Shown: positions 1-64,000, numbered from the stretch's first letter. The stretch is 64,000 nucleotides of DNA from a virus (IMGVR_UViG_3300011008_000009:1-64000); one strand, 5' to 3'. Notes: generated from the sequence alone by a model not told the origin. Numbers and translations are program-made.

Positions 1-246
1 ACAAAATTTTCGCGCCGAAACTGTACATAATCACCACAAATGTAATCGTTATTATGTAATCGTTTACACCGGCGCCGAATTTTAATATACTAAAGCGCCG
101 AAGCGTTGGACCTGGATCTGCTTTATGCTTTAAACCATTAAAGTCCGACGTCGAACTTTCATACACTAAAGTGTTAAGGGGCCGATCCGGGAATTTATGC
201 ACCAAAACGTGAACAAAAAATTTTTTAAAAAATTTTTAAAAACCTA

Positions 247-275
247 TTGACAAATGACCCGAAATGTGCTATAAT
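247..275 (+). promoter_or_regulatory. sigma70/sigmaA-type promoter of paralog cassette A
   Basis: TTGACA 247-252, 17-nt spacer, TGcTATAAT (TATAAT 270-275). Phased A/T tracts at 215-246 upstream. AGGAGG at 292-297 precedes ATG 306. Confidence 0.8.
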
Positions 276-305
276 GTATATAGTAAAGGACAGGAGGACG
301 CGAAA

Positions 306-863
306 ATGAAAAAATGGAAATACGAAAACGAAATCAAGAACGCCACAGCAACACTCTTGAAAGCATATCTCGACACGATGCACAGCAAGACCATTGCAGT
401 AGTTTTCACAAATGAAAACGATGTTTACTACTATGACCTTACCGAAAATGATTTGACAGACCTTGCAAGAGTAAACAACGAAAAATTAATGACACAGTCA
501 CTCACGAAAAAAAGACTTGCAAAGTACCTTGAAAACGCTATCAAGTTCGCCACAATAAACGACATAGACGAAATCAAGAGAAACTTTCCGAGATACGCAA
601 ACAACAACGGATATATCGCGGAATTTGTTTACAGATACAAAAAGACAAATGAAACGATAGAAGAAATCAAAAAATCAAACAAATCAATCGCCTACGACCT
701 CGAAAGTGATACAAGAGATAACAAACAGATAAAAGAAATCACGAACGGCGCGACATTTACAACATTCGCCTACATATTGAAAGTAGCGAGAGAAAAGAAA
801 ATAGACTACTTAAACGAAATCGAAAACGCGGTAAATACACTCACAAAAATATACAGTGAGTAA
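306..863 (+). CDS. Hypothetical protein, left-end paralog A (185 aa)
   Basis: The track ORF 264-863 starts inside the -10 box. ATG 306 has a good SD. About 50% identical to the ORF at 2053-2601 (MKKWK..LL.AYL.TMHS, NNGYI.EF.YR, YD..SDT.DNKQIK, ATFTT). Own promoter and terminator. No family recognised. Confidence 0.8.
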   Translation: MKKWKYENEIKNATATLLKAYLDTMHSKTIAVVFTNENDVYYYDLTENDLTDLARVNNEKLMTQSLTKKRLAKYLENAIKFATINDIDEIKRNFPRYANNNGYIAEFVYRYKKTNETIEEIKKSNKSIAYDLESDTRDNKQIKEITNGATFTTFAYILKVAREKKIDYLNEIENAVNTLTKIYSE

Positions 864-867
864 AGGA

Positions 868-895
868 GTGTGGAACAGAAATGTTCCACATTTTC
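868..895 (+). terminator. Intrinsic terminator of cassette A
   Basis: Stem TGTGGAACA (869-877) / TGTTCCACA (882-890) followed by TTTT. Same hairpin sequence as the one after paralog B. Confidence 0.75.
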
Positions 896-1107
896 GCGCT
901 GATCTGTTTTGTGCTTTAATGTGTGAAAGTTCGACGTCGAATTATAACGCTTTAAACCACTAAAGCGCCGGACCTAGATCCGCCTCGACATTTTAAAGCA
1001 CTAAAGCGCCGGACATTGACATAGCGCACAGCCCGACTATTGCCGACCAGAGCGCTGTATTTTATTTAGTTTTGTTAATTACTCTTCATAGTTCGGGTCT
1101 GTGATAT

Positions 1108-1317
1108 TCAGCACAAACCGTCGTCAAATTCCAGTTTGCCATAGCCGTAGCTTAAATCAGCTTTCACAGCGTACTTTCTCAGCATATCCACGATGGTGCA
1201 TTCGTCTTCGGTGTAGTAGTTCATCGAGATAGTGTAGGTGTCCTCGCTCTCGTTGAGTTCGCCCGTGATGTCCGCGAGTTCGAGCATTCTTACGATAAGT
1301 CTTGCATTTGTAGTCAT
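1108..1317 (-). CDS. Small acidic hypothetical protein (69 aa)
   Basis: ORF with about 14 D/E versus 6 K/R. Driven by a near-consensus promoter at 1371-1399. The SD is weak. G+C and codon style are richer than the surrounding spacer. Confidence 0.55.
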   Translation of the reverse strand: MTTNARLIVRMLELADITGELNESEDTYTISMNYYTEDECTIVDMLRKYAVKADLSYGYGKLEFDDGLC

Positions 1318-1344
1318 ATTTTTGTACTCACTGATATATATTTT

Positions 1345-3052: not shown

Positions 3053-4246
3053 ATGATCAAACTCGATTTCAGTCTACAATCTGAACAACAAAGATTAGAC
3101 TATATAAATCAATACGACCTCTCAAAACTTTCCCAATCTCAAATAGAACTCTGTGCAAATTACATACTTTATGGAAAAGATAAAACCGGTAAATCCGAAG
3201 TCGATAAAAAACACATTTATATAAATACGAAATATGATAGTTATAAAACCAAACGTCCAGAGTCACTAGATGCATTGATTGATACTGGAAGTTTTGACGA
3301 GGTAATAATACCTAAGTATGACCAGCACTATAAGACCGTTAAACCTACTATAGATAGGGTGAAGGACGCTGATATTCCCACGATGAAAGAAGTGTGGGAG
3401 GGAATAGATTACTTGCAACATATATTGGATGTGAATTTAGGGAAGGCGGAGCCGGACCCCGGTGAGAACGTTCCAAAATTAACTCCCACCGAATTATATA
3501 AGTGGCAACATATGGTGATAGACGTTAGGCGCAATCAGTACTACCTCAAAGATATATTCAAGCCAACTATAAATAAGTATTTCAATAAACTCAACTACAT
3601 CCCCTACCACGATGCCAACGAAGCCGACTGGAACGACCCTAATTCAGACTACGGATTCGCGCCCTTAGGTCTAATCAATGATTTTGGGGTGGGTAAGCTG
3701 GTATTTAGCGGCGCCACCAATTATGAGGTAAGAACGCCGTTGTATAATGAAAATGCGCGTCATATAGTGGACTTCCGCAATCCTAAACATGTATATAGTT
3801 TAATGGACTATTATGAAGAGTTAGCTACCGCCGCCCTAGATAACCCAACTAGCCTTATGGGGCTGATAGTGAGGACGTTAGACTATTATATTGATAGAGC
3901 GAATTTGAAGGATCAGCATTATACTATTATTGAAATGAAGAAGTTACATAAAAAGAATAAGGAGATTAATGAAAAATTAACCGAATTATATGGATTACAT
4001 CATACCGAAAATTACATTAGTACGATATGGACACATAAGGTGTGTACCGAAATTGCCGCAGCCGCACAATTACACTATGATGAGTTTTTAAGACGAAACG
4101 ATGAAAGTGCTTGGAAGGTTTGCTGTACGTGCGGGCGCCGTTTACTAAGAGACAGCAGAATGTTTGTGAAGAAGAATAAGGCGAAGGACGGATTGAGTGG
4201 TAGATGCAAGATGTGCGATAGAGTAGAGAGAATGCGCAGGAGATGA
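3053..4246 (+). CDS. Hypothetical protein with C-terminal zinc ribbon (397 aa)
   Basis: The track ORF 2924 runs through the promoter. The first ATG after it is 3053, but GGAGG lies 15 nt upstream, so the start is uncertain. C-terminus: CCTCG..F..K..DG....CKMC. No family recognised. Confidence 0.6.
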   Translation: MIKLDFSLQSEQQRLDYINQYDLSKLSQSQIELCANYILYGKDKTGKSEVDKKHIYINTKYDSYKTKRPESLDALIDTGSFDEVIIPKYDQHYKTVKPTIDRVKDADIPTMKEVWEGIDYLQHILDVNLGKAEPDPGENVPKLTPTELYKWQHMVIDVRRNQYYLKDIFKPTINKYFNKLNYIPYHDANEADWNDPNSDYGFAPLGLINDFGVGKLVFSGATNYEVRTPLYNENARHIVDFRNPKHVYSLMDYYEELATAALDNPTSLMGLIVRTLDYYIDRANLKDQHYTIIEMKKLHKKNKEINEKLTELYGLHHTENYISTIWTHKVCTEIAAAAQLHYDEFLRRNDESAWKVCCTCGRRLLRDSRMFVKKNKAKDGLSGRCKMCDRVERMRRR

Positions 4247-4253: not shown

Positions 4254-5195
4254 ATGGCGAGTTATTTTAAGAAGTGTACTTCGTGTAATAGAGAGCAACC
4301 CATTACAAGTTTTAGTAAGGTAAGAAGTAAGTTCTTTAGTGATGGTATGCTGACGATATGCAATGATTGCTTAGATTTGATGGTAAAGGCGGGCAAACCA
4401 AACGAAGAATGGGATAGAGTGAATAAGATATGCCAATGGGCGGACGTACCATTCTTACCTGATGAATGGCAGAAGATACGTCAGGGCGCCGATAGCAATT
4501 GGTTCAGTAGGTACACTAAGATTTTTAGTGCTAAGGGATTTGAAGATATTAGTTGGCGCGATTACAACGAGTTGTATATGAAGTTGCATCAATCGGGAGA
4601 ATTGGTGGAGGAAGTACCGGGGTATAGTGAAGCTAAGTATGAGAACTTAGTGAAGAAGTGGGGTAGTTCATATGACCACGAAGAGTTGGATAGGCTGGAA
4701 GACTTATTTAATGAGACTATTGCGACCCAGAACGTTACTACTGGTAACCAAATAGACCAGGTGAAAAAGATTTGCAAGACTTCTTTGATGATAGACCAGA
4801 GAATTGAGGAAGGTAATCCATATAAGGATTTGATGGATAGCTATGAGAAGTTGATAAAAGTTGCAGACTTAACGCCGAAGAATACTAAAAACTCAAATGA
4901 CTTTGATAGCGTGGGCGAGGTTTACGCATACCTAGAAGGACGCGGTTGGGTGAATAAGTACTATGACGGCGCCCGTAGGGATGAAGTAGATGAAACGATG
5001 AAGAATATACAGAATTGGACTAGAAAGCTGTGTCTAGGAGAGTCTACTTTAACAGAAGAGATACTGCAGAAGATAAATAATTTAACTGGCTATAATGAGG
5101 GAGATGAAACAGATTATGACTCTTTTGATTATGACCAGTATGAGAAAGAAGCTATGGACCAAGCGCAAAACCAAGAGGTGGAAGTTGAAGTATAA
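4254..5195 (+). CDS. Hypothetical protein with N-terminal zinc ribbon; positional candidate for the small terminase subunit
   Basis: CTSC..F....F.DG....CNDC at the N-terminus and an acidic C-terminus. Stop overlaps the TerL start (TAATG). The TerS call rests on gene order only. Confidence 0.35.
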   Translation: MASYFKKCTSCNREQPITSFSKVRSKFFSDGMLTICNDCLDLMVKAGKPNEEWDRVNKICQWADVPFLPDEWQKIRQGADSNWFSRYTKIFSAKGFEDISWRDYNELYMKLHQSGELVEEVPGYSEAKYENLVKKWGSSYDHEELDRLEDLFNETIATQNVTTGNQIDQVKKICKTSLMIDQRIEEGNPYKDLMDSYEKLIKVADLTPKNTKNSNDFDSVGEVYAYLEGRGWVNKYYDGARRDEVDETMKNIQNWTRKLCLGESTLTEEILQKINNLTGYNEGDETDYDSFDYDQYEKEAMDQAQNQEVEVEV

Positions 5196-7003
5196 TGGAT
5201 GAAGAGAATGTTTTAACGCCCGAAAAGTTAAGAGAAAGACTTATGGCACTGAAAGCTAAGACAGAGACCAATACTCACAAAAGTACATCGTATAATAGAA
5301 TGGTCAAAGATGGAATAGTAGTACAGAAAGGTTCAACACTAAGTAAGCATAGAATAGATAGTCACTTAGCTTTATATCAAATATATTGTACTTTTTTCAG
5401 TGCCTACCCTGATTTATTTCTAGATTTAATTAAGCCAGAAAATAGTGGATTTCAGTTCTTTTTCTATCAGAGAATATTTTTAAGAGCCTGTTTAAGATAT
5501 AGGCTAGTTTACACCACGGCGCCGAGAGCTTTCAGTAAGTCTTTCATTTCGATATTAGCTATACTACTAATTTGTATTTTCAGACCTGGAATGAAGGAGT
5601 TCATTTGCGCGCCTGGTAAGGAACAGTCCGCAAAGATAGCGAAGGAGAAGTTGGTTGAAATCTTTGGTATCTGGCCGCTCCTAGAAAAGGAATTGGAAAA
5701 GCAAAATTACGGCAAAGATTATGTAGAGTTATTCTTTAAGAATGGCAGTAAGTTCGACGTTGTCGGCGCCCTAGACAGCCAACGTGGTGGACGTAGACAC
5801 GGCGGACTGGTAGATGAGATACGTGATCATGATGGTGATACTATAAATGAAGTAGTACTGCCGCTGATGAATGTATCTAGACGTACTACCAAAGGTATAT
5901 TAAATCCTTATGAGCCTCACCAATGTCAATTCTTTATGACTTCTGCTGGCTCTAAGGCATCATACGCATATGAGAAGCTGATAGAAGTATTACAGACGGA
6001 AGTAATCAATCCTAAACAGGCTTTTGTCTGGGGATGTGATTATAGAGTTCCTATGAAATGCGGATTACTGCCTAAGGACTACTTACAGGAAATTAAGAGT
6101 TCCAGTACCTATAAGGAAGAGACCTTTGCGAGAGAGTATTTGGGTCTTTGGACGGGCAGTAGCGAAGAGTCCTGGTTTGATTATGAGAAAATTAGTCGGC
6201 GCCGGACCCTACTCAATCCCGAAACGCACCAAAAAATTGTACGAGGTAGTAAGGCTTTTTACTTACTCTCAGTGGATGTGGGACGTTTGAGTTGTCAAAC
6301 AGTTTGTTGCGTCTTTAAGGTTATGAATAAGAAAGATGTACTGCACGCGAATCTAGTGAATTTATACGTTATAGGTAAGAATGAAAAGAATAGGCACTTT
6401 GAACAACAAGCATTGGAATTAAAGAAAATTATAGCGGCTTTCGACCCTAGAGAGATTGTTATAGATGGTAACGGTCTGGGCGTCGGATTGTTAGACTTTA
6501 TGATTCGTCCAACTATTGACGGAGAAACTGGTATAACTTATCCGCCTTACGGTAGCTGCAATAATGAAGATTATATTAAAATTCAACCTAAAGATTGTCA
6601 GAGAATAATTTATGTAATTAAGGCTAACAATACTTTAGACGGAAAAATCCACGGAAATTGTTACTCTCGATTAACTAGTGGTTTGGTACAATTTTTAGTT
6701 AATGAAAGAGTTGCGAAAAATAAATTAATGGAACAAAAATCATATAATAATTTATCTCTTGAAAAGAAAGTTAAACGACTAATGCCCCATGAGATGACCT
6801 CTGATTTGTTTGAAGAAATGAGCAATTTGCGCTTGAAGAGCAATGCTGGTCTAGACATCAAATTGGAGCAGATACGTACACATAAAACAAAGGATAAATT
6901 TAGTGCTTTTGAGTATGGTCTTTGGAGAATAAAAGAGTTAGAAGACCAAATAATTAAAAAGAATAGAAAAGGCAAAATACGTGATTTAGTTTTCATTGGA
7001 TAA
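5195..7003 (+). CDS. terL: Terminase large subunit
   Basis: 602 aa. Walker-A-like APRAFSKSF, Walker-B GGLVDE, MTSAGSK, FAREYLGLW, and C-terminal nuclease-like LSVDVG / VIDGNGLGVG. Sits immediately upstream of the portal. Confidence 0.8.
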   Translation: MDEENVLTPEKLRERLMALKAKTETNTHKSTSYNRMVKDGIVVQKGSTLSKHRIDSHLALYQIYCTFFSAYPDLFLDLIKPENSGFQFFFYQRIFLRACLRYRLVYTTAPRAFSKSFISILAILLICIFRPGMKEFICAPGKEQSAKIAKEKLVEIFGIWPLLEKELEKQNYGKDYVELFFKNGSKFDVVGALDSQRGGRRHGGLVDEIRDHDGDTINEVVLPLMNVSRRTTKGILNPYEPHQCQFFMTSAGSKASYAYEKLIEVLQTEVINPKQAFVWGCDYRVPMKCGLLPKDYLQEIKSSSTYKEETFAREYLGLWTGSSEESWFDYEKISRRRTLLNPETHQKIVRGSKAFYLLSVDVGRLSCQTVCCVFKVMNKKDVLHANLVNLYVIGKNEKNRHFEQQALELKKIIAAFDPREIVIDGNGLGVGLLDFMIRPTIDGETGITYPPYGSCNNEDYIKIQPKDCQRIIYVIKANNTLDGKIHGNCYSRLTSGLVQFLVNERVAKNKLMEQKSYNNLSLEKKVKRLMPHEMTSDLFEEMSNLRLKSNAGLDIKLEQIRTHKTKDKFSAFEYGLWRIKELEDQIIKKNRKGKIRDLVFIG

Positions 7004-7015
7004 GGAGTTGATATA

Positions 7016-8542
7016 TTGGCACTTGGTTTAAAAGGAAAAGAAATTTCTCTGACAGAGTTTAAGAGAAATTTAGGAGAATTGATAGCTGCCGATGATACTG
7101 CTTACATAAGAAGTTCTAATAGAGATATTGTTAACAACAGAAATCTTGAGCGTGATTACTATTCGGAAGAAGATGTTAAGAACATCTTAGCTTCTGGCTC
7201 AACGCAAGAAAAGAAGAACTTATCTTCCTATTTCTTTAAGCATAACAGTATGTACAAGAAGATTATTCTACACTACGCATCATTCTTGACTTATCAGTAT
7301 CTTTTGGTGCCACATACTCCAATTGAGGATGGCTTTAGCGATCCTAGCATAATGCTAAGTTATGATGATGCGGTAGACTTCTTGTATGCTTTTGATGTAG
7401 AAAATAAATGCTCTTATTTCACTTACAAGATTCTAGTAGAGGGCGCGTATTATGGGCTAATTAAAGAAGTTAATAAGAAACCAGTATTAATGGATTTACC
7501 CATAGAATATTGTCGTAGCAGATTTAAAAGTGACGACGATATAGATGTAGTAGAATTTGATTTAAGTTTCTTTGATAGCATCCGTGATGCAGACTTAAAA
7601 AAGCAAGTATTAACAACTTACCCTAAATACATACAGAAAGAGTATAAAAAGTATTTAAAGAATAAACAGAAATACAGATGGATGTTTCTAAATCCTAGCG
7701 ATGGGGTTCACTTCAATTTCTATGCTGAATACCCATTCTTCTTAGATATCATACCTTTACTACAAGGATATGATGAACTATCTGAGATTAATAAAACCAA
7801 AAGAAACCAAGAAATACAAAAAATACTAATCAACGAAATGCCCATTACTTCTCAAGGTGAATTAGTTTTTGAGCCAGTAGAAGCTATGGAAATGCATCAA
7901 GGCTACAAACGAATGTTAAAGAATAACATAGATGTTACTCCTTTAACTACTTACGCAAAAGCTCACGTTGAGTCTTTACAAGATACTTCTGCGGCAGAAC
8001 AAAATTATCTAGAGCAGGCAAGAGAAGAAATTTTTGGCGTAACTGGTACAAGTACACAGGTTTTCGCGCCGACTACTGCGGGAGCCATCCCTTACTACTT
8101 ACAAAATACTTTATCTCTTATGAGAGCCTTCTCTCGGCAATATCAACAGTTCTTTACTATATTGATTAATAGATACTATGCTACTAAAGATATTAGATTT
8201 AATATCATAGTTCCACCTATTAGTAACTATAATACTAAGGAATTTATCGCTGATGCATTTAAACTTGCTTCGTCTGGATATAGTTTCTTTATGCCTTGTC
8301 TTGCTTTAGGTGTTGGACAGAGAGACTTAAGAGACTTGAAGTTGTTAGAAGGTACATTAAGACTTAGAGATATTCTTGAGCCGCTACATTCTTCTTATAC
8401 AGAAAGTTCTAAATCTCAATCAGAAGAGCAAAACGAAACGGCGGCGGAAACTAAGGAAAACTCCAATGTCGATAACACTGGCGGCGCGCCCACCAAGGAT
8501 AATCCGTCAGAAAAAACTATTCAAAATAGAGAAAGTTTATAA
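7016..8542 (+). CDS. Portal protein (by position and size)
   Basis: 508 aa following TerL. TTG start with AAGGAG 8 nt upstream. Acidic/polar C-terminal tail. No motif-level proof. Confidence 0.6.
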   Translation: MALGLKGKEISLTEFKRNLGELIAADDTAYIRSSNRDIVNNRNLERDYYSEEDVKNILASGSTQEKKNLSSYFFKHNSMYKKIILHYASFLTYQYLLVPHTPIEDGFSDPSIMLSYDDAVDFLYAFDVENKCSYFTYKILVEGAYYGLIKEVNKKPVLMDLPIEYCRSRFKSDDDIDVVEFDLSFFDSIRDADLKKQVLTTYPKYIQKEYKKYLKNKQKYRWMFLNPSDGVHFNFYAEYPFFLDIIPLLQGYDELSEINKTKRNQEIQKILINEMPITSQGELVFEPVEAMEMHQGYKRMLKNNIDVTPLTTYAKAHVESLQDTSAAEQNYLEQAREEIFGVTGTSTQVFAPTTAGAIPYYLQNTLSLMRAFSRQYQQFFTILINRYYATKDIRFNIIVPPISNYNTKEFIADAFKLASSGYSFFMPCLALGVGQRDLRDLKLLEGTLRLRDILEPLHSSYTESSKSQSEEQNETAAETKENSNVDNTGGAPTKDNPSEKTIQNRESL

Positions 8543-8556
8543 ATGGAGGATTTAAA

Positions 8557-9897
8557 ATGCCAGAAAAAAAGATACCTACTTCCTTTGAGGTTCAATTATA
8601 TGGCGATTTAGTACCTTACTCTTCTACCATTTCTAAGGCTCGTGTACGAATTTTTTATAGGGGACTTAATAGAAATGGCTCTTATATATCGGAAGAGTTC
8701 GCTGAAAAATTAATAAAGACACTACCATATGCGCCTGTTAAGGGCATTTATGATGAAGAGGGCAAGGATTACACCGACCACGGCAATGGTATTAAAAGTC
8801 TCGGAAAGGCTTACGGTGTAGTTCCCGAAAACAATAACGGTAGTTGGGAACTTCATATGGACAATGATGGAGTCGAAAGACTTTACTACTGTAGTGATGT
8901 TCTTTTATGGACTTCCTTATATGAAGTTGCAAAAAGTATACCGGGCAAAGCTCAAAGCATGGAACTAGATTATGATAGTGTCAAAGGCGAATGGACTGAT
9001 TTCGGAGATTTTATAGCTTATAAATTTACCGATGGCTGTTTCTTAGGATTACAGGTATTAGGTACAATTAATGGAGAGGAAGTGGAGCCTTGCTTCGAAG
9101 GTAGTGCATTCTACACTAAGCAAGCAGACTTAAATTACCAATTCTCGGAAATCATAAAAATTGCCAAAAATTATAATTCACAAAAGGAGGATATAAAAAT
9201 GCCGGAAGAAAAACAGAATGTAACTCCTGAGTTAGAAAATTCGGTGGCTGATACATCCGCTAATGGCGCGAATACAGACACTTCGTTTGAAACTAACGAA
9301 GGCGCTGGTACAGATGCTGGAGCAGATGTTGGAACAGATACTGGTGCAGATGCAGGTACTGACGCTGGAACAGGCGCTGACACCAATACTGGTGATACTG
9401 GCGCGGACGCAGGTACTGCTGATACTAGTACTATTGATGCTAGTACAGGTGCTACAGTAGACATTAGTGGCGGCGCAGATAACAATGCTAACACAGGTAC
9501 AGACTATCAGCTTAAGTTTAACGAATTAACTGCTTCTTATAATGAGTTAAATGAAAAGTTTACCAAACTTTCGGATGAATTTTCTGTATTAACAGATAAA
9601 TTTAACCACTTACAAGCAGAAAGAGATAGTTTAGCTGAATACAAAGTAAATGCTGAAAATGAAGAGAAGAATCAAGTACTCGACAAATACTCCAATATTT
9701 TAAAGGCAGAAGTAATTCAGTCTTACAAAGAAAAAATAAATGATTTTTCTGTGATTGAACTTGAAAAAGAGCTATGTTTTGAGGCGCATAAGGATGATAC
9801 CTTTGAACCAGATACAGCAAACTTCTCTTACAAAAACAATGGTACGGTTGAGATGACACCTTTAATGAGTTGTCTTAATGATTACAGAACTGAATAA
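8557..9897 (+). CDS. Head scaffolding-type protein: N-terminal globular domain, T/D/G/A repeats and a coiled coil
   Basis: 446 aa between the portal and the capsid gene. Low-complexity GTDAGAD repeats and a heptad-rich C-terminus (LNEKFTKLSDEFSVLTDKFNHLQAERDSL). Confidence 0.55.
   Translation: MPEKKIPTSFEVQLYGDLVPYSSTISKARVRIFYRGLNRNGSYISEEFAEKLIKTLPYAPVKGIYDEEGKDYTDHGNGIKSLGKAYGVVPENNNGSWELHMDNDGVERLYYCSDVLLWTSLYEVAKSIPGKAQSMELDYDSVKGEWTDFGDFIAYKFTDGCFLGLQVLGTINGEEVEPCFEGSAFYTKQADLNYQFSEIIKIAKNYNSQKEDIKMPEEKQNVTPELENSVADTSANGANTDTSFETNEGAGTDAGADVGTDTGADAGTDAGTGADTNTGDTGADAGTADTSTIDASTGATVDISGGADNNANTGTDYQLKFNELTASYNELNEKFTKLSDEFSVLTDKFNHLQAERDSLAEYKVNAENEEKNQVLDKYSNILKAEVIQSYKEKINDFSVIELEKELCFEAHKDDTFEPDTANFSYKNNGTVEMTPLMSCLNDYRTE
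9199..9897 (+). CDS. Possible nested in-frame scaffold product (232 aa)
   Basis: In-frame ATG 9199 preceded by AAAGGAGG (9183-9190) at canonical spacing. It begins exactly where the repeat and coiled-coil part starts. Confidence 0.4.
   Translation: MPEEKQNVTPELENSVADTSANGANTDTSFETNEGAGTDAGADVGTDTGADAGTDAGTGADTNTGDTGADAGTADTSTIDASTGATVDISGGADNNANTGTDYQLKFNELTASYNELNEKFTKLSDEFSVLTDKFNHLQAERDSLAEYKVNAENEEKNQVLDKYSNILKAEVIQSYKEKINDFSVIELEKELCFEAHKDDTFEPDTANFSYKNNGTVEMTPLMSCLNDYRTE
9301..9500 (+). repeat. Imperfect tandem coding repeats (G-T-D-A-G-A-D units)
   Basis: Reiterated ggtaca/gatgct/ggagca/gatact units. They also generate spurious ORFs on both strands (9171-9494, 9263-9460). Confidence 0.8.
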
Positions 9898-9906
9898 TGG
9901 AGGATA

Positions 9907-10605
9907 ATGAATATGGCTATTCAAAGATATGGTATTGATGGCTATGGCGTACTTGAACTTAACCAGGTAGCGTTCCCTACAACTGGTACAGTTGAAGCGC
10001 AGTGCAAGCTAGACTATACAAATGATTTTAAAGAGCTGTCTACTGAAAATAGCGCGAAGACTATTTGCGAAGTAGGTATGCTTCTAGCCGTTGATAAGGC
10101 TAATGACGTTGTTAAACTTCCTACTGTAGACGGTACTGACGTAGATGGATCGACAACAGACGACGAAATACTTCCTATTGGTATTAACTACACATCTGAG
10201 TTCGAGTACAATCAGTATGTTAAGGGTCTAAACAAGTTTGCTATGACTAAAGACCTTTCTGTTGGTGGTATTGACCTTTATGGTGTAGTACATGGTGACC
10301 TTCTTCCTAGAATTGGTTACCTCACAGTAGGCGACAAATTTACTTCTAACTGCTTAGCTTATGACCCCGATGAATTTGATGGTACATACGGCGGACAGGC
10401 TCTTACTGACGACGCTGCTCTTGAGGCTGCTTTAGACGCTAGTGCTACAACTCCTGTATATGGTACTTATGGCACAAATGGCGCAATTCTTCTTACAAAG
10501 ACTGCTCCCAAGGCTAAGATAGTTCTTAAGGTAGTTAAGGGTAAGGATTGGAAACTTCCTGACGGTATTCATCGTGGCGTAATGCTTCAGGTTATTAAGG
10601 CATAA
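9907..10605 (+). CDS. Head-module hypothetical protein (decoration or auxiliary capsid protein candidate)
   Basis: 232 aa with a good SD, directly upstream of the capsid gene. Codon style resembles highly expressed genes. Confidence 0.4.
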   Translation: MNMAIQRYGIDGYGVLELNQVAFPTTGTVEAQCKLDYTNDFKELSTENSAKTICEVGMLLAVDKANDVVKLPTVDGTDVDGSTTDDEILPIGINYTSEFEYNQYVKGLNKFAMTKDLSVGGIDLYGVVHGDLLPRIGYLTVGDKFTSNCLAYDPDEFDGTYGGQALTDDAALEAALDASATTPVYGTYGTNGAILLTKTAPKAKIVLKVVKGKDWKLPDGIHRGVMLQVIKA

Positions 10606-10619
10606 GGAGGGATAAGGAA

Positions 10620-11681
10620 ATGGCTAAATTATTAAGTATTGAAGACATTAAGGAACTTGCCCACTATGCTATAACTCGCAAGGTACCGGCTAAGTTCTCC
10701 AAAGATGGCGAAAAGTATGATATAGACCTCGCTCTTAGAGATCAGTTAAACCTGTTAGCAGGTGACATATATGCGTTCCAGAAGAACAAGTGGGATATCT
10801 ATCAGATAATCCAGGAAAACGCAGATGAATTCCTTCCCAAGGAAATCAGAACTATCATGGGTCAGTTCGCTGAAATCAAGACAGTTCCCCTTGGCTCAAA
10901 GGCTCAGTTCTTAGTTAAGCGCGGTAGAACAAGAGCTAAGCGTTTCATCACACAGGTAGGACCTGCTGGTCTGTACGAATCGTTCAGAATGGACGAAGGT
11001 ACATTTGACCTTGGTGGTTACACAGTAGGTGGAGCTGCTCGTATCGACTTCGAGCGTCTTGTTCGTGGTGATGAAAACTTCAGCGAGTATATGGATATTG
11101 TACTTGATGGACTTGTATTTGCAGTATATGGCATCGTTCAGAAGGCTCTTCGTGGCGCGATTGCTAATATGCCCGCAGGTTCTAATACAAATACAGTAAC
11201 TTCCACTTGGGATCCCGATGCTATGGCTAAGATTATAAGCACAATGAAGGCTTATGGTGATGGCGCGGTAATCTTCGCTCCGCCCGAGTTCATCGCTGCT
11301 ATGGGTCCGGACGCTATTGGTGCGGCAGGTAACTTCCCCACATATTCTACTAAGGATATTGACGATATCCATGACACAGGTAGAATCCACACCTTCAGAG
11401 GAACACCTATCATCGAGCTTCCTCAGAGCTTCTTAGATGAGACCAACACTACTACACAGATCGATCCTCAGATTGCTTATGTATTCCCAACTGGTGGAGA
11501 AAAGGTAGTTAAGATCGTATTTGAAGGTCCTACACAGATTGATGATTACAAGTGTAAAGATCGCTCTCTTGAAATGAACGTTTACAAGAGAATTGGCGCG
11601 GCTATACTTACATATCACAACTGGGGCGCTTACAAGAACACAAGCATTCCTCAGACTTACACAGACGATTCGTTAATATAA
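10620..11681 (+). CDS. Major capsid protein (candidate)
   Basis: 353 aa with a strong SD (AAGGAGG). Codon usage is biased to ggt/cgt/ttc/atc. Position is after the scaffold, and a strong stem-loop follows. Confidence 0.65.
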   Translation: MAKLLSIEDIKELAHYAITRKVPAKFSKDGEKYDIDLALRDQLNLLAGDIYAFQKNKWDIYQIIQENADEFLPKEIRTIMGQFAEIKTVPLGSKAQFLVKRGRTRAKRFITQVGPAGLYESFRMDEGTFDLGGYTVGGAARIDFERLVRGDENFSEYMDIVLDGLVFAVYGIVQKALRGAIANMPAGSNTNTVTSTWDPDAMAKIISTMKAYGDGAVIFAPPEFIAAMGPDAIGAAGNFPTYSTKDIDDIHDTGRIHTFRGTPIIELPQSFLDETNTTTQIDPQIAYVFPTGGEKVVKIVFEGPTQIDDYKCKDRSLEMNVYKRIGAAILTYHNWGAYKNTSIPQTYTDDSLI

Positions 11682-11693
11682 GCAATTAATGTT

Positions 11694-11722
11694 GTGGGTG
11701 GGTAGAACTTCTATCCACCCAT
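11694..11722 (+). terminator. Stem-loop after the capsid gene (attenuating terminator or mRNA stabiliser)
   Basis: GGGTGGGTAG (11696-11705) / CTATCCACCC (11711-11720). No U-tract follows it, only an A-rich run. Confidence 0.4.
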
Positions 11723-11750
11723 AATAAAAAAGGAGTTAAAGGAGAATATT

Positions 11751-12248: not shown

Positions 12249-12260
12249 TGGAGGTATGAT

Positions 12261-12954: not shown

Positions 12955-12964
12955 GGTGTTAAAA

Positions 12965-13636: not shown

Positions 13637-13640
13637 GTAA

Positions 13641-14881: not shown

Positions 14882-14902
14882 TTTATAAGGAGGAAACTTC
14901 AA

Positions 14903-15975: not shown

Positions 15976-15988
15976 ATAAGGAGAAATT

Positions 15989-54915: not shown

Positions 54916-57276
54916 TTATTCTATGCTACGAATTAATTTTCGTATCTTGTCGGTTTCGTCTATCTTCATACTATGCGTACCCTTTGTTGTTCGTGAAGAT
55001 AGCTGAATTTCATTGGTAGAAAATTTAATAATATTTCTACTTGAAAGAACCAAAATATCCTTATCACTACCAAGAGGAAGTACCGCCGCCAAATAATCAT
55101 CATCAGATATCTTTTGTACTGCCGATCCCTTAGTATAACGATTACATAACGGATACTCTTCTATATTAGTCTTTTTGATATAGCCCTGCTCGGTTACTGT
55201 TGCGAGATATTGAGCATCTGATGCTATTTTCGCGCCAGAAATTACATAATCATCTTTATTGAGTTTAATACCAATTACGCCTTGAGTTACTCTACCAGTG
55301 GCAGGAATGTCGGTAGTATTTATTGTTATACCCAAACCTTCGTGTGTAGCGATTACATAATTCTCGTCGTTTATGAAACTAATATCTACTATTTCATCAT
55401 TATCTTTGAGTTTGATACCCTGAATGCCAGTAGACCTTTTAGTTTTATATTCTGATATTAAAGTTTTCTTTATCATCCCCAGCTTAGTAAGGAAGAAGAT
55501 GTACTTAAAGCTATCAGTTTTGTTATATGCCATCGCGCCGACTAGATGCTCGTCAATGGGAATATCAAATGTTCCGTATATATTAGTAGTTTCTCCTATT
55601 GTGAGATCTGATAAATTAATATTGTAAACCTTGCCCTTATCAGAAACCAGTAACATAGAGCCTAAGTTTGTATCGTTGATTGTTGCAATTACATACTCAT
55701 CGGCGCCGAGTTTTAGCTTATTACCCTTTCCGCCCCTGCGCTGACTAAGTAGAGTAGTAGACTCACTTGTATAGATGTTACCTTTGTTAGTAACGTGAGC
55801 AATAAGAGTTACTTCTTCGATTATTTCATCTTCATTGTCTGACGAAAGATTTAATACCTGAGTCCTTCTTGCGTCGCCATACTTATCTCTTACAGTGATT
55901 AAATCCTTTTCTATTTCTTTCTTTAAAAGAGTTTCGTTAGAAAGAATTTTTTCAATCTCTGCTATTTGAGAAAGAAGTTTAACTTTCTCCTGCTTATACT
56001 TTTCAACTTCCATATGAGTAAGTCTAGCAAGTTTTATTTCAAGTATCGCAGTAGCTTGTGTTTCAGTAAGTAAAAAATTCTTCTGTAACTCAATATTTGC
56101 TATTGTCGCGCTAGTTGAAGACTTTATAGTATTAACTACTTCGTCAATATGAGCCAAAGCAATTATAATACCTTCAACTATATGGAGTCGCGCCTTGAGC
56201 TTATTGAGTTCAAAATTAAATACGTTAGTATAGACATTAATTTGGTGAGTTAGATAAGCCTGAAGTGCTTCTTTCCAAGTGAATGTTCGAGGATATCTAC
56301 CGTCTTCAAGCATAGTAAAATTAATGCCATAATATGATTGAAGAGAAGTATTCTTGTAAAGATACTTAATTACCTTATCGGGATTACCTCTACGATTAAG
56401 ATAAATCTTTATCAACGGATTTTCACCAGTAAGGTCATTATATCTTTCTATACCACAATCTGGCTCTTCATCGAGTATCTTATCAAGTTCTCCACATATA
56501 GTATTAGTGTAAACGCCATAAGGTATTTCTGTCACTACAAGCGTGCGCTCTTTTTCATCATACGATACAACCGAACGCAATTTACAAGCCTTGCCAGTAC
56601 CATTTTTAAGACTTTCTTTTACTTCACTTTCGTTTAGAAGTAAACCACCAGTCGCAAAATCGGGGCAACAATAAATATCTTCAAAAGGTATATCGGAGTT
56701 CCACAGTAATTTAATCAATGCATTGTTTACATCGGTTAGATTGAACTGAGGTATAGAACTTGCGGCGCCGACACCTATACCCATTGTGCCATTAACGATA
56801 TTGTAGTATCCTTTAGTCGGTAATACGGCAGGATACTGCTTTTCATTACTATAGTTGTCGCGCCATTCTGTAATAGCCTGTTTGTTTATATCTTTAAACA
56901 ATAAGCCCGAAATTTCAGAAAGTTTACTCTCGGTATAACGCGAAGCCGCCCAGTTACCACTTGCTATTAATGTACCACAGTTACCTTTTATGGCAACCAA
57001 AGGATATCTCATAGCAAAATGCTGCCCTGCTCTCATTATTACGCCTTCGCAAGATGCATCACCGTGAATGTAATAATCTGCCATAGCTAAACCGACAGCA
57101 TTCGCAGTTTTCTTAAACTTATTGTCATAAGTAAGTTTATTTTGCAACATTGAATAAAATATTTGTCTAGCCGATGGCTTAATACAATCACGAACATCTA
57201 CGAGCGCACGGCTTTGCAGCACAGCTCCAGCGTATTGACTAAACGACTGTTCTATTATTGTTTTAAGTTCGCTCAT
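54916..57276 (-). CDS. Type IIA DNA topoisomerase subunit A (GyrA/ParC-like)
   Basis: 786 aa. Catalytic-tyrosine context NWAASRYTESKL. HGDASCEGVIMRAGQHFAMRYPL. C-terminal beta-pinwheel-like repeats. Confidence 0.9.
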   Translation of the reverse strand: MSELKTIIEQSFSQYAGAVLQSRALVDVRDCIKPSARQIFYSMLQNKLTYDNKFKKTANAVGLAMADYYIHGDASCEGVIMRAGQHFAMRYPLVAIKGNCGTLIASGNWAASRYTESKLSEISGLLFKDINKQAITEWRDNYSNEKQYPAVLPTKGYYNIVNGTMGIGVGAASSIPQFNLTDVNNALIKLLWNSDIPFEDIYCCPDFATGGLLLNESEVKESLKNGTGKACKLRSVVSYDEKERTLVVTEIPYGVYTNTICGELDKILDEEPDCGIERYNDLTGENPLIKIYLNRRGNPDKVIKYLYKNTSLQSYYGINFTMLEDGRYPRTFTWKEALQAYLTHQINVYTNVFNFELNKLKARLHIVEGIIIALAHIDEVVNTIKSSTSATIANIELQKNFLLTETQATAILEIKLARLTHMEVEKYKQEKVKLLSQIAEIEKILSNETLLKKEIEKDLITVRDKYGDARRTQVLNLSSDNEDEIIEEVTLIAHVTNKGNIYTSESTTLLSQRRGGKGNKLKLGADEYVIATINDTNLGSMLLVSDKGKVYNINLSDLTIGETTNIYGTFDIPIDEHLVGAMAYNKTDSFKYIFFLTKLGMIKKTLISEYKTKRSTGIQGIKLKDNDEIVDISFINDENYVIATHEGLGITINTTDIPATGRVTQGVIGIKLNKDDYVISGAKIASDAQYLATVTEQGYIKKTNIEEYPLCNRYTKGSAVQKISDDDYLAAVLPLGSDKDILVLSSRNIIKFSTNEIQLSSRTTKGTHSMKIDETDKIRKLIRSIE

Positions 57277-61925: not shown

Positions 61926-61948
61926 TCTCCTTTTCACTTTATAATAAT

Positions 61949-61977
61949 ATTATACCATAATATAACGAAAAAGTCAA
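61949..61977 (-). promoter_or_regulatory. sigmaA-type promoter of the topoisomerase B gene
   Basis: TTGACT 61977-61972, 17 nt, TGgTATAAT (61954-61949). Confidence 0.8.
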
Positions 61978-61996
61978 GGGATTTGACCCTTGACTT
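61968..61996 (-). terminator. Intrinsic terminator whose 3' arm forms the next -35 box
   Basis: GTCAAGGG (61973-61980) / CCCTTGAC (61987-61994). On the minus strand it is followed by TTTTT. Confidence 0.65.
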
Positions 61997-62003
61997 AATC
62001 GGT

Positions 62004-62345
62004 TTAAAGTATATTCAGATACTTAAGTAAGTTTCTATACTCTCTGTCTAAAAGCAGCGAATCATCTTCGGTATCATCTTTCTTGAAAGTTCCTTTTACG
62101 CTATATTTTATAATAGGAATTTCACCGTACTTTTCAAAATACTTTTCGGAAAGATTTGCTGCCTTATCTATGAGTTCCTGTATCTCTTTCTGCTTACTTT
62201 CTTTCTCTGCCTTCAGCGCTGCCTTTCTCTTGTCTTCCGCCGCCTTTTCAGCATTGGCTATACAATCGCGTTCGCACTGGTTTCTTTCAGCTACGGTGTT
62301 GTATCTCTTACCACATATTCCACAAGTATAAATCTGTTCTCTCAT
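62004..62345 (-). CDS. Zinc-ribbon / coiled-coil hypothetical protein (113 aa)
   Basis: CGICGKRY......CERDC followed by KAAEDKRKAALKAEKESKQKEIQE. ATGA overlap with the MFS gene stop. Confidence 0.5.
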   Translation of the reverse strand: MREQIYTCGICGKRYNTVAERNQCERDCIANAEKAAEDKRKAALKAEKESKQKEIQELIDKAANLSEKYFEKYGEIPIIKYSVKGTFKKDDTEDDSLLLDREYRNLLKYLNIL

Positions 62346-63517
62346 TTTTTAATACCTCTCTTTAATAATATTATTGTAGTGAAACCTATTGTATATAATC
62401 CAAGTAATACCCAAAGTACCGGCATATATGCTCCCGTAACACCAAATACAATAGAACTAATATTGTTACCTACTAATCCTGCTATTCCCCAAGCAGTTAA
62501 TGACAGTCCGTGTATTGCACTAAGTCTGTTCATTCCATAGATATCAGATAACAATGTTGGCATATTACTAAAGCCAGCGCCATAAGTGCTAGAAATAATG
62601 CATAGACCAATAATAGTAACTATAATATTCTGTGTTAATAGCATAAGTACCATTGTGGCTACGGATATTAGAAAAATTACTAAGTAGATGTTCACTCTAC
62701 TATTAAGTTTATCAGAAATTGCGGAAAAAGTCAAACGTCCGAGTCCATTGCAAATTCCCATAATAGCAACTGCTGTTGCCGCGAGTCCAGGACCACAATT
62801 AATTGATACTAGTAAAGGAGATGCAATAGATATTAACGCTAGACCACACGCAATATTTAAAAAGAACATTAACCAAATTTTTCTAAATTTGCTGTCCTTA
62901 AACATAGTTAAAACTTTAAAATCATCTTTTGTAGTTTGTTCTACATAATTAGGCGGTCGCTTAATTAGTATAGAAGCTAATATTAAAGGTATTACTGATA
63001 TGGCGGCAAAACCTAAAAATGTAACAGTTAGATTAGTTGTTTCAAGTAAAAAGGTAAGTATAGGAGTAGCTATTGTACTTGCAAAACCAAAGCCCATAAT
63101 TGCTATTCCAGTTGCCACACCTTTGTGTTCAGTAAACCATAGCATTAGGTTTTTAATAGGTGTTAAATATCCTATGCCAAGTCCACATCCCATAAGAACA
63201 CCATATCCTAAGTATATAAGCCATATGGATTGCAACCAAGAGCCGAGCGCCGTAACGAGCAGACCGCCGCAGAAGAACAGCACACATAATCGAGAGCTTA
63301 GCTTAATATTGTGTTCAACTAATTTACCCAAGAACGCTGCCGACATTCCAAGAAAGAATATAGCTAAACTAAATGCGAACTGTACCCAAGCCACTGACAT
63401 TCCGACAGCCGCCGTTACGGGGTTTACGAGTAAACTCCAGGCATATACCGAGCCTATTGTACAGTGGATACATAAAGCTGGAATGGCGCCATGTATCCAT
63501 TTTCCTAATTTTCCCAT
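62342..63517 (-). CDS. MFS transporter, oxalate/formate antiporter (OFA)-like
   Basis: About 12 hydrophobic helices. N-terminal G..Y.WS pattern (GSVYAWSLL), LGKLVEH, GYGVLMGCGLGIGY. Start moved to ATG 63517 (AGGAG upstream). Confidence 0.8.
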   Translation of the reverse strand: MGKLGKWIHGAIPALCIHCTIGSVYAWSLLVNPVTAAVGMSVAWVQFAFSLAIFFLGMSAAFLGKLVEHNIKLSSRLCVLFFCGGLLVTALGSWLQSIWLIYLGYGVLMGCGLGIGYLTPIKNLMLWFTEHKGVATGIAIMGFGFASTIATPILTFLLETTNLTVTFLGFAAISVIPLILASILIKRPPNYVEQTTKDDFKVLTMFKDSKFRKIWLMFFLNIACGLALISIASPLLVSINCGPGLAATAVAIMGICNGLGRLTFSAISDKLNSRVNIYLVIFLISVATMVLMLLTQNIIVTIIGLCIISSTYGAGFSNMPTLLSDIYGMNRLSAIHGLSLTAWGIAGLVGNNISSIVFGVTGAYMPVLWVLLGLYTIGFTTIILLKRGIKK

Positions 63518-63999
63518 AAAACAACTTCTCCTTTTAATAGTGATTCTTGCACATCTATAATGCATTGATTGCTTGAACCTCTAAATTTTAGTGTAATATC
63601 TCGCTTATCTATCTCAAAAGGTCCGTCAACCAAAACGTCTATATATTGTAGTATTCTTAAATTTTTAGATAGTTGTTCAAAAGTAAAACCAGTATAGCAC
63701 CAAATAGTTTTGTCTTTATACTCATTCTTTATATCCTGTAAAAAAGATAATAATGTTTCATTACTACTATGATATATAGGGTCGCCGCCGGTTAGTGTTA
63801 AACCTTTAATGTAAGGATTTTTTAATAACTGTTTAATATTATTAATTTCAGCTTCTCCAAAAGGCTTTCCTGCATTAAAGTCCCAACTTTCTGGATTATG
63901 ACAACCTTTACAATGGTGGTCACAGCCAGAGAGCCAGAGGGTTACTCTGACTCCTGGACCATTAGCTACATCAAATTCATCTATTGCTAAATAATTCAT
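63505..63999 (-). CDS. nrdG: Anaerobic ribonucleotide reductase activating protein NrdG
   Basis: 164 aa. GPGVRVTLWLSGCDHHCKGCHNPESW (radical-SAM cluster site of NrdG type). GLTLTGGDP. Confidence 0.85.
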   Translation of the reverse strand: MNYLAIDEFDVANGPGVRVTLWLSGCDHHCKGCHNPESWDFNAGKPFGEAEINNIKQLLKNPYIKGLTLTGGDPIYHSSNETLLSFLQDIKNEYKDKTIWCYTGFTFEQLSKNLRILQYIDVLVDGPFEIDKRDITLKFRGSSNQCIIDVQESLLKGEVVLWEN

Positions 64000-64000
64000 A

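Follow-up and report, generated by a model that had tools for sequence, protein, structure and literature searches.

A highly iterated GGCGCC palindrome with a GCGC core in the genome of an SPβ-like phage

The sequence studied here, IMGVR_UViG_3300011008_000009:1-64000, is part of a larger phage genome; it is hereafter called the window, meaning the whole stretch of 64 kb that was analyzed (G+C content 35.0%). Judging from its gene content and kin, it belongs to a large SPβ-like siphophage of the herbivore gut. We show that this phage lineage has GGCGCC as its highly iterated palindrome, namely a word favored at the level of DNA and built on a GCGC core.

Over-Representation of GGCGCC

The window contains exactly 36 copies of GGCGCC, of which 13 lie within the 8-bp palindrome CGGCGCCG and five within the 10-bp palindrome TCGGCGCCGA (starting at 32911, 36187, 36676, 44578 and 55700); this direct count reproduces all the coordinates given in an initial annotation of the sequence, with none missed or added. 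The density amounts to 0.56 per kb, i.e. 562 hexamers per Mb, with sites unevenly scattered. From base composition alone (order 0) 1.85 copies are expected, close to the two or so initially estimated, whereas Markov models of order 1 and order 2 predict 2.7 and 3.9. The expectations under order 3 (18.5) and order 4 (32.9) are high because the excess already sits in the sub-words (182 copies of GCGC, 81 of GGCGC and 74 of GCGCC), the signal building up at every length. By over-representation GGCGCC ranks first of all 4096 hexamers at both order 0 and order 1; the second all-G+C palindrome is GCGCGC (8 versus 3 expected; paired counts are given throughout as observed versus expected).

When synonymous codons are permuted within each gene, keeping proteins, dipeptides and per-gene codon usage (codon shuffle), 6.07 ± 1.86 copies are obtained with a maximum of 14 in 1000 runs, together with 1.1 copies of the 8-mer and 0.03 of the 10-mer. 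A stricter shuffle, which also keeps each codon-junction dinucleotide and thereby retains part of the signal itself, gives 11.3 ± 2.6 copies (maximum 20 in 500 runs); under the two shuffles the 13 copies of the 8-mer compare with 1.1-1.6. Counting within open reading frames (ORFs) only, we find 34 copies versus 4.2. The enrichment of GGCGCC is thus ~6 to 19 times expectation depending on the null model, and the three shuffles rule out codon usage, dipeptide content and junction dinucleotides as its cause. Because shuffles that keep proteins and codon usage fall far below 36, the cause must be sought in the DNA word itself rather than in proteins or codon usage. Shuffles of this kind had been named in the initial annotation as a check on its proposal of selection on the DNA word. 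They uphold the word-level cause; selection as such is unproven, since the depletion confined to transition neighbors and the patchiness of the sites, both described below, fit a mutation or repair bias at least as well.

Gene calls are ORF-based (54 genes in the window), so that starts are possibly off; frames are robust. As many as 25 of the 36 sites read GGC-GCC (Gly-Ala), in genes on both strands, six are in the Ala-Pro frame, three in frame 1 (including CGG-CGC-CGG) and two are intergenic, which agrees with the earlier description of two-thirds in frame and a remainder in other frames or between genes. GGC and GCC are indeed minority codons, accounting for 22.6% of Gly and 12.7% of Ala. 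Among the 86 Gly-Ala dipeptides, GGC-GCC is used 25 times (2.5 expected) and GGC-GCG 19 times (3.1 expected). The sites are listed below with gene limits and strand; frame 0 denotes GGC-GCC. Related loci are designated by L and a number, L010 and L011 being the closest relatives (~71-74% DNA identity to the window).

71..76, intergenic; in 8-mer CGGCGCCG (70-77); adjoins the operator-like palindrome TGTAATCGTTTACA
3710..3715, sigma-factor-like gene (2924-4246, +), frame 0, S-G-A-T; residues differ in relatives
4134..4139, sigma-factor-like gene, frame 1, GGG CGC CGT (G-R-R); common to L010; I-K, K-T or V-L in other relatives
4485..4490, YonG-like gene (4254-5195, +), frame 0, Q-G-A-D; window only
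4968..4973, YonG-like gene, frame 0, D-G-A-R; common to L010 and L011; G-V (GGT GTA) in outgroups
5518..5523, large terminase gene (5195-7003, +), Ala-Pro frame, ACG GCG CCG; in 8-mer; common to L010 and L011; ACT GCG, GCT or GCA in other relatives
5765..5770, large terminase gene, frame 0, conserved V-G-A-L; window only; relatives use GGT GCG, GGT GCC, GGC GCT or GGA GCC
6198..6203, large terminase gene, frame 1, CGG CGC CGG (R-R-R, rare codons); in 8-mer
16444..16449, gene 15989-16774 (+), Ala-Pro frame
16781..16786, intergenic (16774 to 16821)
24947..24952, tape-measure-like gene (18437-26995, +), frame 0, Q-G-A-G
25469..25474, tape-measure-like gene, frame 0, S-G-A-N
27692..27697, gene 27017-28033 (+), frame 0, T-G-A-D; in 8-mer
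29163..29168, tail gene of 1690 amino acids (28045-33117, +), Ala-Pro frame
29482..29487, same tail gene, frame 0, G-G-A-V
31645..31650, same tail gene, frame 0, T-G-A-L
32536..32541, same tail gene, frame 0, F-G-A-A
32913..32918, same tail gene, Ala-Pro frame; center of 10-mer TCGGCGCCGA (32911-32920)
33845..33850, RuvC-like gene (33501-34274, -), frame 1, W-R-P
34609..34614, dUTPase-like gene (34234-35070, -), frame 0, A-G-A-D
36189..36194, GIY-YIG gene (36021-37046, -), frame 0; center of 10-mer TCGGCGCCGA (36187-36196)
36678..36683, same GIY-YIG gene, frame 0; center of 10-mer (36676-36685)
37345..37350, ClpP-like gene (37048-37854, -), frame 0; in 8-mer
44580..44585, DnaE N-terminal piece (43545-45482, -), frame 0; center of 10-mer (44578-44587)
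45764..45769, RecJ-like gene (45557-47320, -), frame 0
46901..46906, RecJ-like gene, frame 0; in 8-mer
49425..49430, DnaB-like helicase gene (48405-50054, -), frame 0
49884..49889, DnaB-like helicase gene, frame 0; in 8-mer
50094..50099, zinc-finger-like gene (50051-50653, -), Ala-Pro frame
50361..50366, zinc-finger-like gene, Ala-Pro frame
51117..51122, PhoH-like gene (50700-51944, -), frame 0
52069..52074, AAA_24 gene (51979-52974, -), frame 0
52585..52590, AAA_24 gene, frame 0
55702..55707, gyrA (54916-57276, -), frame 0; center of 10-mer (55700-55709)
56764..56769, gyrA, frame 0; in 8-mer
63485..63490, MFS-transporter gene (62342-63565, -), frame 0

The two intergenic sites lie in 4.6 kb of DNA for which 0.12 would be expected (p=0.007). 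Spacing is uneven, with four gaps of 6.7-10.2 kb (p=0.00025 for at least four gaps above 6.7 kb under uniform placement), while the position of sites within genes is uniform (Kolmogorov-Smirnov p=0.54); these two tests rule out regular spacing and a preferred within-gene position. There is no sign of a positional function in this patchy distribution, and the uneven spacing lends no support to the packaging or condensation role once suggested. The longest site-free stretch, 6204..16443, runs from the portal to the tail-tube genes and favors a neighboring word: of the 17 Gly-Ala dipeptides in its portal, YonD-like and capsid-like genes, 7 are written GGC-GCG, and GGCGCG itself is present 8 times versus 0.5. 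Throughout the head module (7004-16800), Gly-Ala is found as GGC-GCG and never as GGC-GCC. The count of GCGC falls to zero in the homing-endonuclease genes at 40464-41453, 42443-43357 and 58371-59090, and in the ORF at 16821-18425. The signature belongs to the resident backbone and is missing from likely recent arrivals, which is how a slowly accumulating genome signature would look.

Structure of the Motif and Direction of Change

Under the codon shuffle, the 4-, 5- and 6-mers that lead in enrichment are fragments or one-off variants of TCGGCGCCGA, with fold enrichments of 1.65 for GGCG/CGCC, 1.9 for GCGC, 2.8 for GGCGC/GCGCC, 4.6 for CGGCGC/GCGCCG and 5.9 for GGCGCC. In absolute terms, the window carries the 182 copies of GCGC against ~95 expected, 155 of GGCGC plus GCGCC against 55, and 62 of CGGCGC plus GCGCCG against 14, while the one-off variants GGCGCG and CGCGCC together reach 35 against 9 (3.9-fold). 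The grading is also seen base by base: the 5' flank of GCGC shows enrichments of 2.8 for G, 2.4 for C, 1.5 for T and 1.3 for A, and the 3' flank of GGCGC of 5.7 for C, 3.9 for G, 1.5 for T and 1.4 for A. Just outside the hexamer, at ±1, G (C on the other side) occupies 41 of the 72 half-sites and T only 4 of 72. Flank complementarity beyond ±1 is at chance level, which rules out a longer palindrome or hairpin in the window. The unit is thus a GCGC core with graded, S-preferring flanks (S being G or C) out to ~8 bp, not a long palindrome. The hexamer that had been taken as the unit does top all hexamers, but it is part of this graded motif.

Not all words of the same composition share the excess. 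The G+C-only hexamers GCCGGC (2 versus 2.3), CGCGCG (2 versus 1.7) and CCCGGG (1 versus 2.2) are flat. A GRCGYC motif such as that of the cyanobacterium Calothrix was considered and rejected, since GACGCC (2 versus 3.7) and GGCGTC (4 versus 3.3) are not enriched; GACGTC is likewise near expectation in the window (3 versus 4.5), and its high count in L010 and L011 belongs to a separate intergenic repeat, AAAGTCyGACGTCrGAyTTT. All words containing GGCC are depleted, GGCC itself being found 6 times versus 55 under the codon shuffle and hardly ever at codon junctions (G-GCC in 1 of 213, GGC-C in 2 of 124). The same shuffle identifies GATC (58 versus 171), CATG (31 versus 87), AAGCTT (1 versus 37) and GAATTC (1 versus 18) as avoided, with GANTC and TCGA also low. 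Such avoidance implies exposure to many restriction systems, and within one genome it is the opposite of what is seen for GGCGCC; the initial annotation had remarked that phages usually deplete short palindromes.

Third codon positions indicate where the change occurs. Before GCN codons, C in third position rises from 30% to 86% in GGY, from 28% to 54% in AGY and from 29% to 47% in CGY, whereas AAY, GAY, TAY, TTY, ATY and ACY show no shift; the T-to-C shift is present only where G-C-G-C results. Codon pairs forming GCGC other than GGC-GCC are also in excess (38 versus 7.5). Of the one-step neighbors of GCGC, only GTGC/GCAC is depleted (157 versus 215, ratio 0.73, z=-5.4), the others lying between 0.93 and 1.11. 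Depletion is stronger for GGTGC/GCACC (0.47, z=-5.7), whereas the equally synonymous GGAGC stands at 1.00, and the ratio of GGT to GGA is 9:22 before GCN as against 449:335 elsewhere (Fisher p=0.0026). Since only the transition neighbors are depleted, these data point to a process acting on C-to-T or T-to-C changes at the central CpG; selection at equilibrium would deplete all alternatives.

Comparison with Related Phages

About 50 related loci were fetched through homologues of the terminase and GyrB, and the region from the sigma-factor to the tail-tube genes was compared codon by codon with eight relatives. Where orthologues can be aligned, the sites differ from those of relatives by substitution with length unchanged, except for a one-codon gap in the outgroup L015 at 16444. 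On these alignments, the sites arose by substitution, synonymous and non-synonymous, rather than by insertion. Synonymous choice, invoked in the initial annotation, is not the only route to the word, several sites having come through amino acid change. One such case is 6198, where close relatives have AAA AAG AGA or near variants (K-K-R) and outgroups K-Y-R or R-Y-R; eight of the nine bases are unlike those of L010, and the rarest Arg codon is used twice in the window sequence.

The excess of GGCGCC recurs in the close relatives, whose terminases are 81-89% identical: L010 has 13 copies versus 0.8 (5 versus 0.4 inside ORFs), L011 has 9 versus 0.7 and L012, more weakly, 3 versus 0.7. The comparison with related genomes that the initial annotation called for therefore also finds enrichment. 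Other relatives favor other words. GCCGGC is favored in L028 (9 versus 1.5), L018 (5 versus 0.6), L027 and L036, with GGCGCC flat in L028 and L018; GCGCGC or CGCGCG in L044 (GCGCGC, 13 versus 2.1), L034 (CGCGCG, 16 versus 2.2), L042, L032, L003 and L017; CCGCGG in L039 (6 versus 1.0); and GGCGCC again in L045 (5 versus 1.0). In these distant lineages the words are mostly single copies inside genes, in all frames. An unbiased word scan places words containing GCSGC on top in many loci, and GCCGCC, CGCCGC and GCGGCA are enriched in many relatives. Conversely, L054 (contig CANRAW010000001.1 of a metagenome-assembled genome, MAG) lacks both GCGC (0 versus 13) and CGCG (0 versus 10), and L048 lacks CCGG (0 versus 10), GGCC (0 versus 17) and GATC (0 versus 46) while carrying 32 GCSGC versus 4; avoidance of GATC is found in almost every relative examined. 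Neither control phage, Geobacillus virus E3 or SPβ, has a palindrome enriched in this way. Taken together, these genomes show a property of the phage family, an iterated palindrome whose word is lineage-specific and switchable.

Some further word biases and repeats were observed in these loci. The SPβ segment 100000-134416 (L041) has no CGCG in 34 kb (14 expected) and GCWGC at ~2.4-fold over expectation. Phage Phass-1 (L009), of the genetic-code-15 clade and with a distant terminase (35%), has 15 GGCGCC versus 4.2, CGCCG/GCCGC words also being moderately raised. The early regions of L010 (100-6600) and L011 (200-5600) hold 8-12 copies of an imperfect palindrome of ~20 bp, aaagtcYGACGTCRgaYttt, between small minus-strand genes, as well as paired GGCGCC hairpin stems of the form GGCGCCC-N8-GGGCGCC:

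L010, hairpin pairs at 1650/1666, 3029/3046 and 4321/4338
L011, hairpin pair at 3473/3489

Finally, ACGTCTAA and its overlaps ACGTCT, CGTCTA and GTCTAA are repeated in L003 (13 copies) and L017 (33-36 copies of the hexamers), probably as another regulatory repeat.

Possible Origin of the Sites

As the driver of this accumulation we tentatively favor a lineage-specific repair bias tied to cytosine methylation, a reading of low confidence in which the enzymes and the ratchet are postulated. A restriction-modification-type activity, encoded by the host or by an unseen part of the phage genome, would recognize (S)GCGC(S), best as GGCGCC. Its likeliest form would be a cytosine-5 methyltransferase combined with correction of T:G mismatches to C:G, either by very-short-patch repair or by the methyl-directed ratchet of Elhai. 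Such a bias would favor C over T at the central CpG, more strongly as the flanks approach the full site; sites would be made from precursors of the GGTGC/GCACC type, then shielded from the strong A+T drift, and would pile up as a by-product without function of their own. A change in the recognizing enzyme would let a different palindrome accumulate, and lineages would differ. The graded flank specificity is as expected of enzyme recognition, and in each lineage the word contains a four-base G+C palindrome such as 5-methylcytosine systems typically have as target.

Several observations weigh against this scheme. The gain of 30 GGCGCC copies is accompanied by a loss of only 6 GGTGCC plus GGCACC, and half-site contexts are drained without a matching gain (with G..A flanks, 11 T-forms versus 31.5). 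Because gains exceed losses, a multi-step ratchet, precursor replenishment or selection on a graded motif would be needed. The outer positions show a preference for S over W (A or T) that is not transition-specific and that a T:G bias cannot produce, while the near exclusion of T at ±1 may indicate selection. Nor can a T:G bias account for the change of eight of nine bases at 6198 or for the gains that change amino acids, as in the conversion of K-K-R to R-R-R at 6198, of G-V to G-A at 4968 and of I-K to R-R at 4134. Sites with conserved residues are kept in three of four cases in L010 and two of three in L011, at ~72-74% DNA identity; the retention in L010 across this divergence is suggestive of selection, though the sample is small.

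The search for an enzyme, which covered the 64-kb window (part of the phage genome), the fetched loci and MtbP-related loci of IMG/VR, also speaks against the scheme. Of the 54 window genes, ~40 were searched with Pfam and PHROGs, and no match to a methyltransferase, a Vsr or a T:G glycosylase was obtained; tblastn with the MtbP of SPβ found nothing in the window and the loci fetched to that point; and of 50 MtbP-related loci in IMG/VR, not one is on a known contig of the family. SPβ, moreover, has a GGCC/GCNGC methyltransferase whose targets show no enrichment in its genome (GGCC 27 versus 34, GCSGC 9 versus 8), so a methyltransferase alone is not sufficient. Two candidates were rejected: a match to a motif-IV regular expression is false and lies in GyrA, and a protein of 343 amino acids with a weak radical-SAM PHROG match has neither a CxxxCxxC motif nor a PDB relative. 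Our confidence in a methylation-coupled repair bias is limited because no enzyme was found, because the SPβ targets are unenriched, and because site 6198, the amino acid changes, the exclusion of T and the retention of sites look like selection.

It is nearly as probable, though in our judgment somewhat doubtful too, that the sites are instead selected recognition sites, whereby a dimeric DNA-binding or DNA-modifying protein of phage or host reads CGGCGCCG-like sites with a graded, weight-matrix-like affinity, reader and site co-evolving in roles such as self-marking, protection, compaction, or control of replication or recombination. The multi-step, non-synonymous gains with rare codons and the retention in L010 and L011 favor this explanation, as do the flank preference that reaches the 8-mer, the intergenic enrichment, the level of the full palindrome at ~1.5-fold above the product of the two half-word enrichments, and the pairs of GGCGCC forming hairpin stems in the early region of relatives. 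Yet selection at equilibrium should deplete GGAGC as much as GGTGC, which it does not; the four large gaps argue against a role needing even coverage; half-words are ~2-fold enriched outside full sites too; complementarity stops at ±1; and no candidate reader was found, the zinc-finger-like protein of 50051-50653 being pure speculation in this respect. We regard as rather unlikely the broader proposition that large SPβ-like phages of the herbivore gut, with genomes of about 100-190 kb, keep as a family lineage-specific G+C-only palindromes by selection, as recognition marks of a phage DNA-binding or DNA-modifying system distinguishing or protecting phage DNA. If selection were the right explanation, this would be the first system of highly iterated palindromes outside cyanobacteria, in small and fast-evolving genomes where the joint switching of reader and word would be visible and the long-unsolved function of such palindromes directly testable.

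A by-product of rare-codon clustering or G+C clumping (for instance through pausing of translation or through cytosines surviving in stable duplex), with restriction avoidance limiting which words are left, is improbable and as sole cause is largely refuted. G+C-only codon pairs without GCGC do exceed expectation (45 versus 25), G+C runs are in excess from six bases upward but in deficit at 4-5 bases, the words GCCGCC, CGCCGC and GCGGCA are raised in many relatives, and the extreme avoidance of GGCC removes many alternatives. This generic clustering, however, yields only ~1.8-fold, and the specificity is too sharp for it: GCC-GGC (Ala-Gly), as rare and stable as GGC-GCC, is flat (2 versus 1.8) against the 25 versus 2.5 of the latter, and the hexamers GCCGGC, CGCGCG and CCCGGG likewise show no excess. 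Of the coding sites, nine lie out of frame, and two further sites are intergenic; even the stricter shuffle reaches no more than 11.3 copies on average, and L028 and L018 have the opposite preference.

We consider very improbable that GGCGC is the Chi-like sequence of host AddAB/RecBCD, protecting ends in both orientations, with the palindrome as two opposed overlapping copies. The half-words GGCGC and GCGCC are each enriched, the ~6-fold enrichment of the palindrome is near the square of the ~2-fold of the half-words, Chi sites of Firmicutes are short and GCG-rich (AGCGG, GAAGCGG, GCGCGTG), and the word differs by lineage as Chi does by host. Against this, the enriched words center on GCGC, CCGG or CGCG palindromes in every lineage, for which Chi offers no reason, non-palindromic copies follow the coding strand and not the logic of genome ends, and a transition-specific depletion of neighbors is not predicted.

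Nicking sites of a phage nickase producing single-strand interruptions as in T5, a role raised in the initial annotation, fit poorly and have hardly any probability: the window has genes for several GIY-YIG nucleases and the consensus of the major T5 nicks, R/GCGCRGG, contains GCGC (cited in PMC3517423), but known phage nick sites (T5, φKMV and tf type) are asymmetric, one-stranded and few (PMC3517423), a palindrome, being identical on both strands, would be cut on both, and the GIY-YIG genes resemble those of free-standing homing endonucleases, interrupting dnaE and gyrB.

The default expectation for phages is the avoidance of palindromes, and here many are avoided while one is driven to 6-19 times expectation, at a cost paid in rare codons and amino acid changes; relatives do likewise with other words. 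The origin and function of highly iterated palindromes have been debated since the 1990s, and a phage family that switches words provides natural replicates for finding the enzyme or binding protein. The system lets mutation bias be separated from selection and makes it possible to test whether methylation-coupled repair can reshape a viral genome. Iterated words also serve as lineage markers, and they predict an unusual restriction or modification behavior of virion DNA.

Genomic Context

The assignment to SPβ-like phages is supported by a YonF-type large terminase (44% identity to that of Geobacillus virus E3), by YonG-like, YonD-like and portal proteins, by a phage sigma factor and by a DnaE polymerase 39% identical to YorL of SPβ. 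Structural genes occupy the plus strand up to 33117, including the gene for a tape-measure-like protein of 2852 amino acids (18437-26995, +), and replication genes the minus strand beyond it. The set for replication and metabolism comprises RecJ, DnaB, a primase-like protein, PhoH, GyrA, GyrB, ThyX, a dUTPase-like protein, RuvC and ClpP. Megablast against the INPHARED/GenBank phage collection gave no close match to the window, whereas two metagenome contigs (L004 and L005) are 100% identical to it over 4129-10445, with zero single-nucleotide polymorphisms. The habitat is the herbivore gut, since the assemblies that yielded relatives are from the gut of goat, buffalo, deer and rabbit; these relatives occur as free contigs that had been binned into MAGs with conflicting taxonomy. 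Of two genome scans for the host, the first was empty and the second gave only phage contigs in MAGs of discordant taxonomy; searches with the proteins at the window ends found no record extending the sequence past the window.

The dnaE gene is broken into three ORFs, encoding PHP plus NTPase (43545-45482), finger (41651-42277) and HhH plus C-terminus (38915-40375), between which lie free-standing GIY-YIG (42443-43357) and LAGLIDADG (40464-41453) endonuclease genes. A similar split is seen in SPβ-like phages of Staphylococcus; an Rfam search of the window gave no match, with no group I intron at the dnaE split. The gyrB gene seems interrupted like dnaE (57276-61937): its N-terminal part (60441-61937) stops inside Toprim and is followed by GIY-YIG genes at 59533-60234 and 58371-59090, with several small ORFs also present between the gyrB piece and gyrA.

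Region 1-2900 is sparsely coding, regulatory in appearance and dense in palindromic repeats, with four copies of ATTAGTTTGACAAACTAATTA, ~6 of the TGTAATCGATTACA type, five of the TTGTTAAAAGTTTAACAA type and four of ACTAAAGCGCCGGA; an AAAGTyCGACGTCGAAyTT element has two copies in the window (about 140-160 and 925-945), and the genes 264-863 and 2014-2601 are paralogues. ORF 16821-18425 (534 amino acids, 22% G+C, third-position G+C 0.12) is compositionally foreign to the window and has no Pfam or PHROG match. Gene 50051-50653 (-), between the DnaB and PhoH genes, encodes 200 amino acids with two tandem N-terminal CxxC...HxxC zinc-finger-like repeats; its product, PHROG 4680 (function unknown), is possibly a DNA-binding protein, and the gene contains two GGCGCC sites. 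The MFS transporter gene at 62342-63565 (Pfam MFS_1, E=5e-25) stands within the region of phage replication genes and has no viral relatives in IMG/VR.

Comparison with Known Systems

Tens of short-site copies scattered in a phage genome, including inside genes, recall the stoperators of cluster A mycobacteriophages, asymmetric 13-bp sites that follow the direction of transcription and lie mostly between genes, and the TGATCA hexamers of P1 pac, which are clustered within 162 bp. The sites described here differ in being palindromic hexamers within codons, for which no binding protein is known. They differ from Chi in the lack of an asymmetric word, all lineages being palindrome-centered. Restriction-site avoidance in phages concerns the same class of words, and operates in the same genome, but with the opposite sign for GGCGCC; GCGC is enriched in one lineage and absent in L054.

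Phages of the SPβ group encode multispecific cytosine-5 methyltransferases (M.SPβI, M.φ3TI, M.SPRI) with targets such as GGCC, GCNGC and CCGG, the specificity of which shifts between close relatives through swaps of target-recognition domains. The broad phage group and the short G+C palindromic words are shared with the present case; however, neither the window nor the relatives fetched yielded an MtbP homologue, and the window phage avoids GGCC rather than protecting it. In E. coli, the Dcm/Vsr system studied by Bhagwat and McClelland in 1992 is said to raise CCWGG and to lower words containing CTAG. Here too an excess of the C-form goes with a deficit of the T-form, graded by the match of the flanks. 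Whereas Dcm/Vsr combines modest enrichment with severe depletion, we find 6- to 19-fold enrichment and depletion to 0.5- to 0.7-fold; the outer-position and multi-base changes are not explained by such repair (for its mechanism, see PMC12907096), and no vsr or dcm-like gene was seen in the window.

We found no report of such iterated palindromes in phages, descriptions being confined to the cyanobacterial literature, where they comprise HIP1 (GCGATCGC) and exceptional palindromes (Elhai 2015, PMC4390886). Among 97 cyanobacterial genomes, the most over-represented hexamer is GGCGCC, in Calothrix PCC 7103; the exceptional palindromes GGCGCC, GCSGC and RCCGGY replace HIP1 in some lineages that gained matching methyltransferases, and they could be by-products of a methyl-directed repair ratchet that includes a one-step change of GGTGCC to GGmCGCC (PMC4390886). 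HIP1 itself spread by substitution (Robinson 1997, as cited in PMC4390886). The resemblance extends from the short, G+C-rich palindrome as top word, with top lists made of its sub-words and common one-off variants, to a location mostly inside genes but independent of coding, spread by substitution, switching between lineages and the very same hexamer. The density of 562 per Mb, of the order of one site per 1-2 kb, is somewhat below the about 1000-2000 per Mb of that class. Differences are GACGTC, GACGCC and GGCGTC near expectation where Calothrix depletes the other GRCGYC members, and the cognate methyltransferase, present in the cyanobacterial genomes and not found in the available window and loci of relatives. 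The carrier here is a phage genome and not a cyanobacterial chromosome, and words switch within a single virus family of modest divergence. The cyanobacterial highly iterated palindromes are the closest known parallel, from which the present case is set apart by its viral carrier and by how rapidly the word switches.

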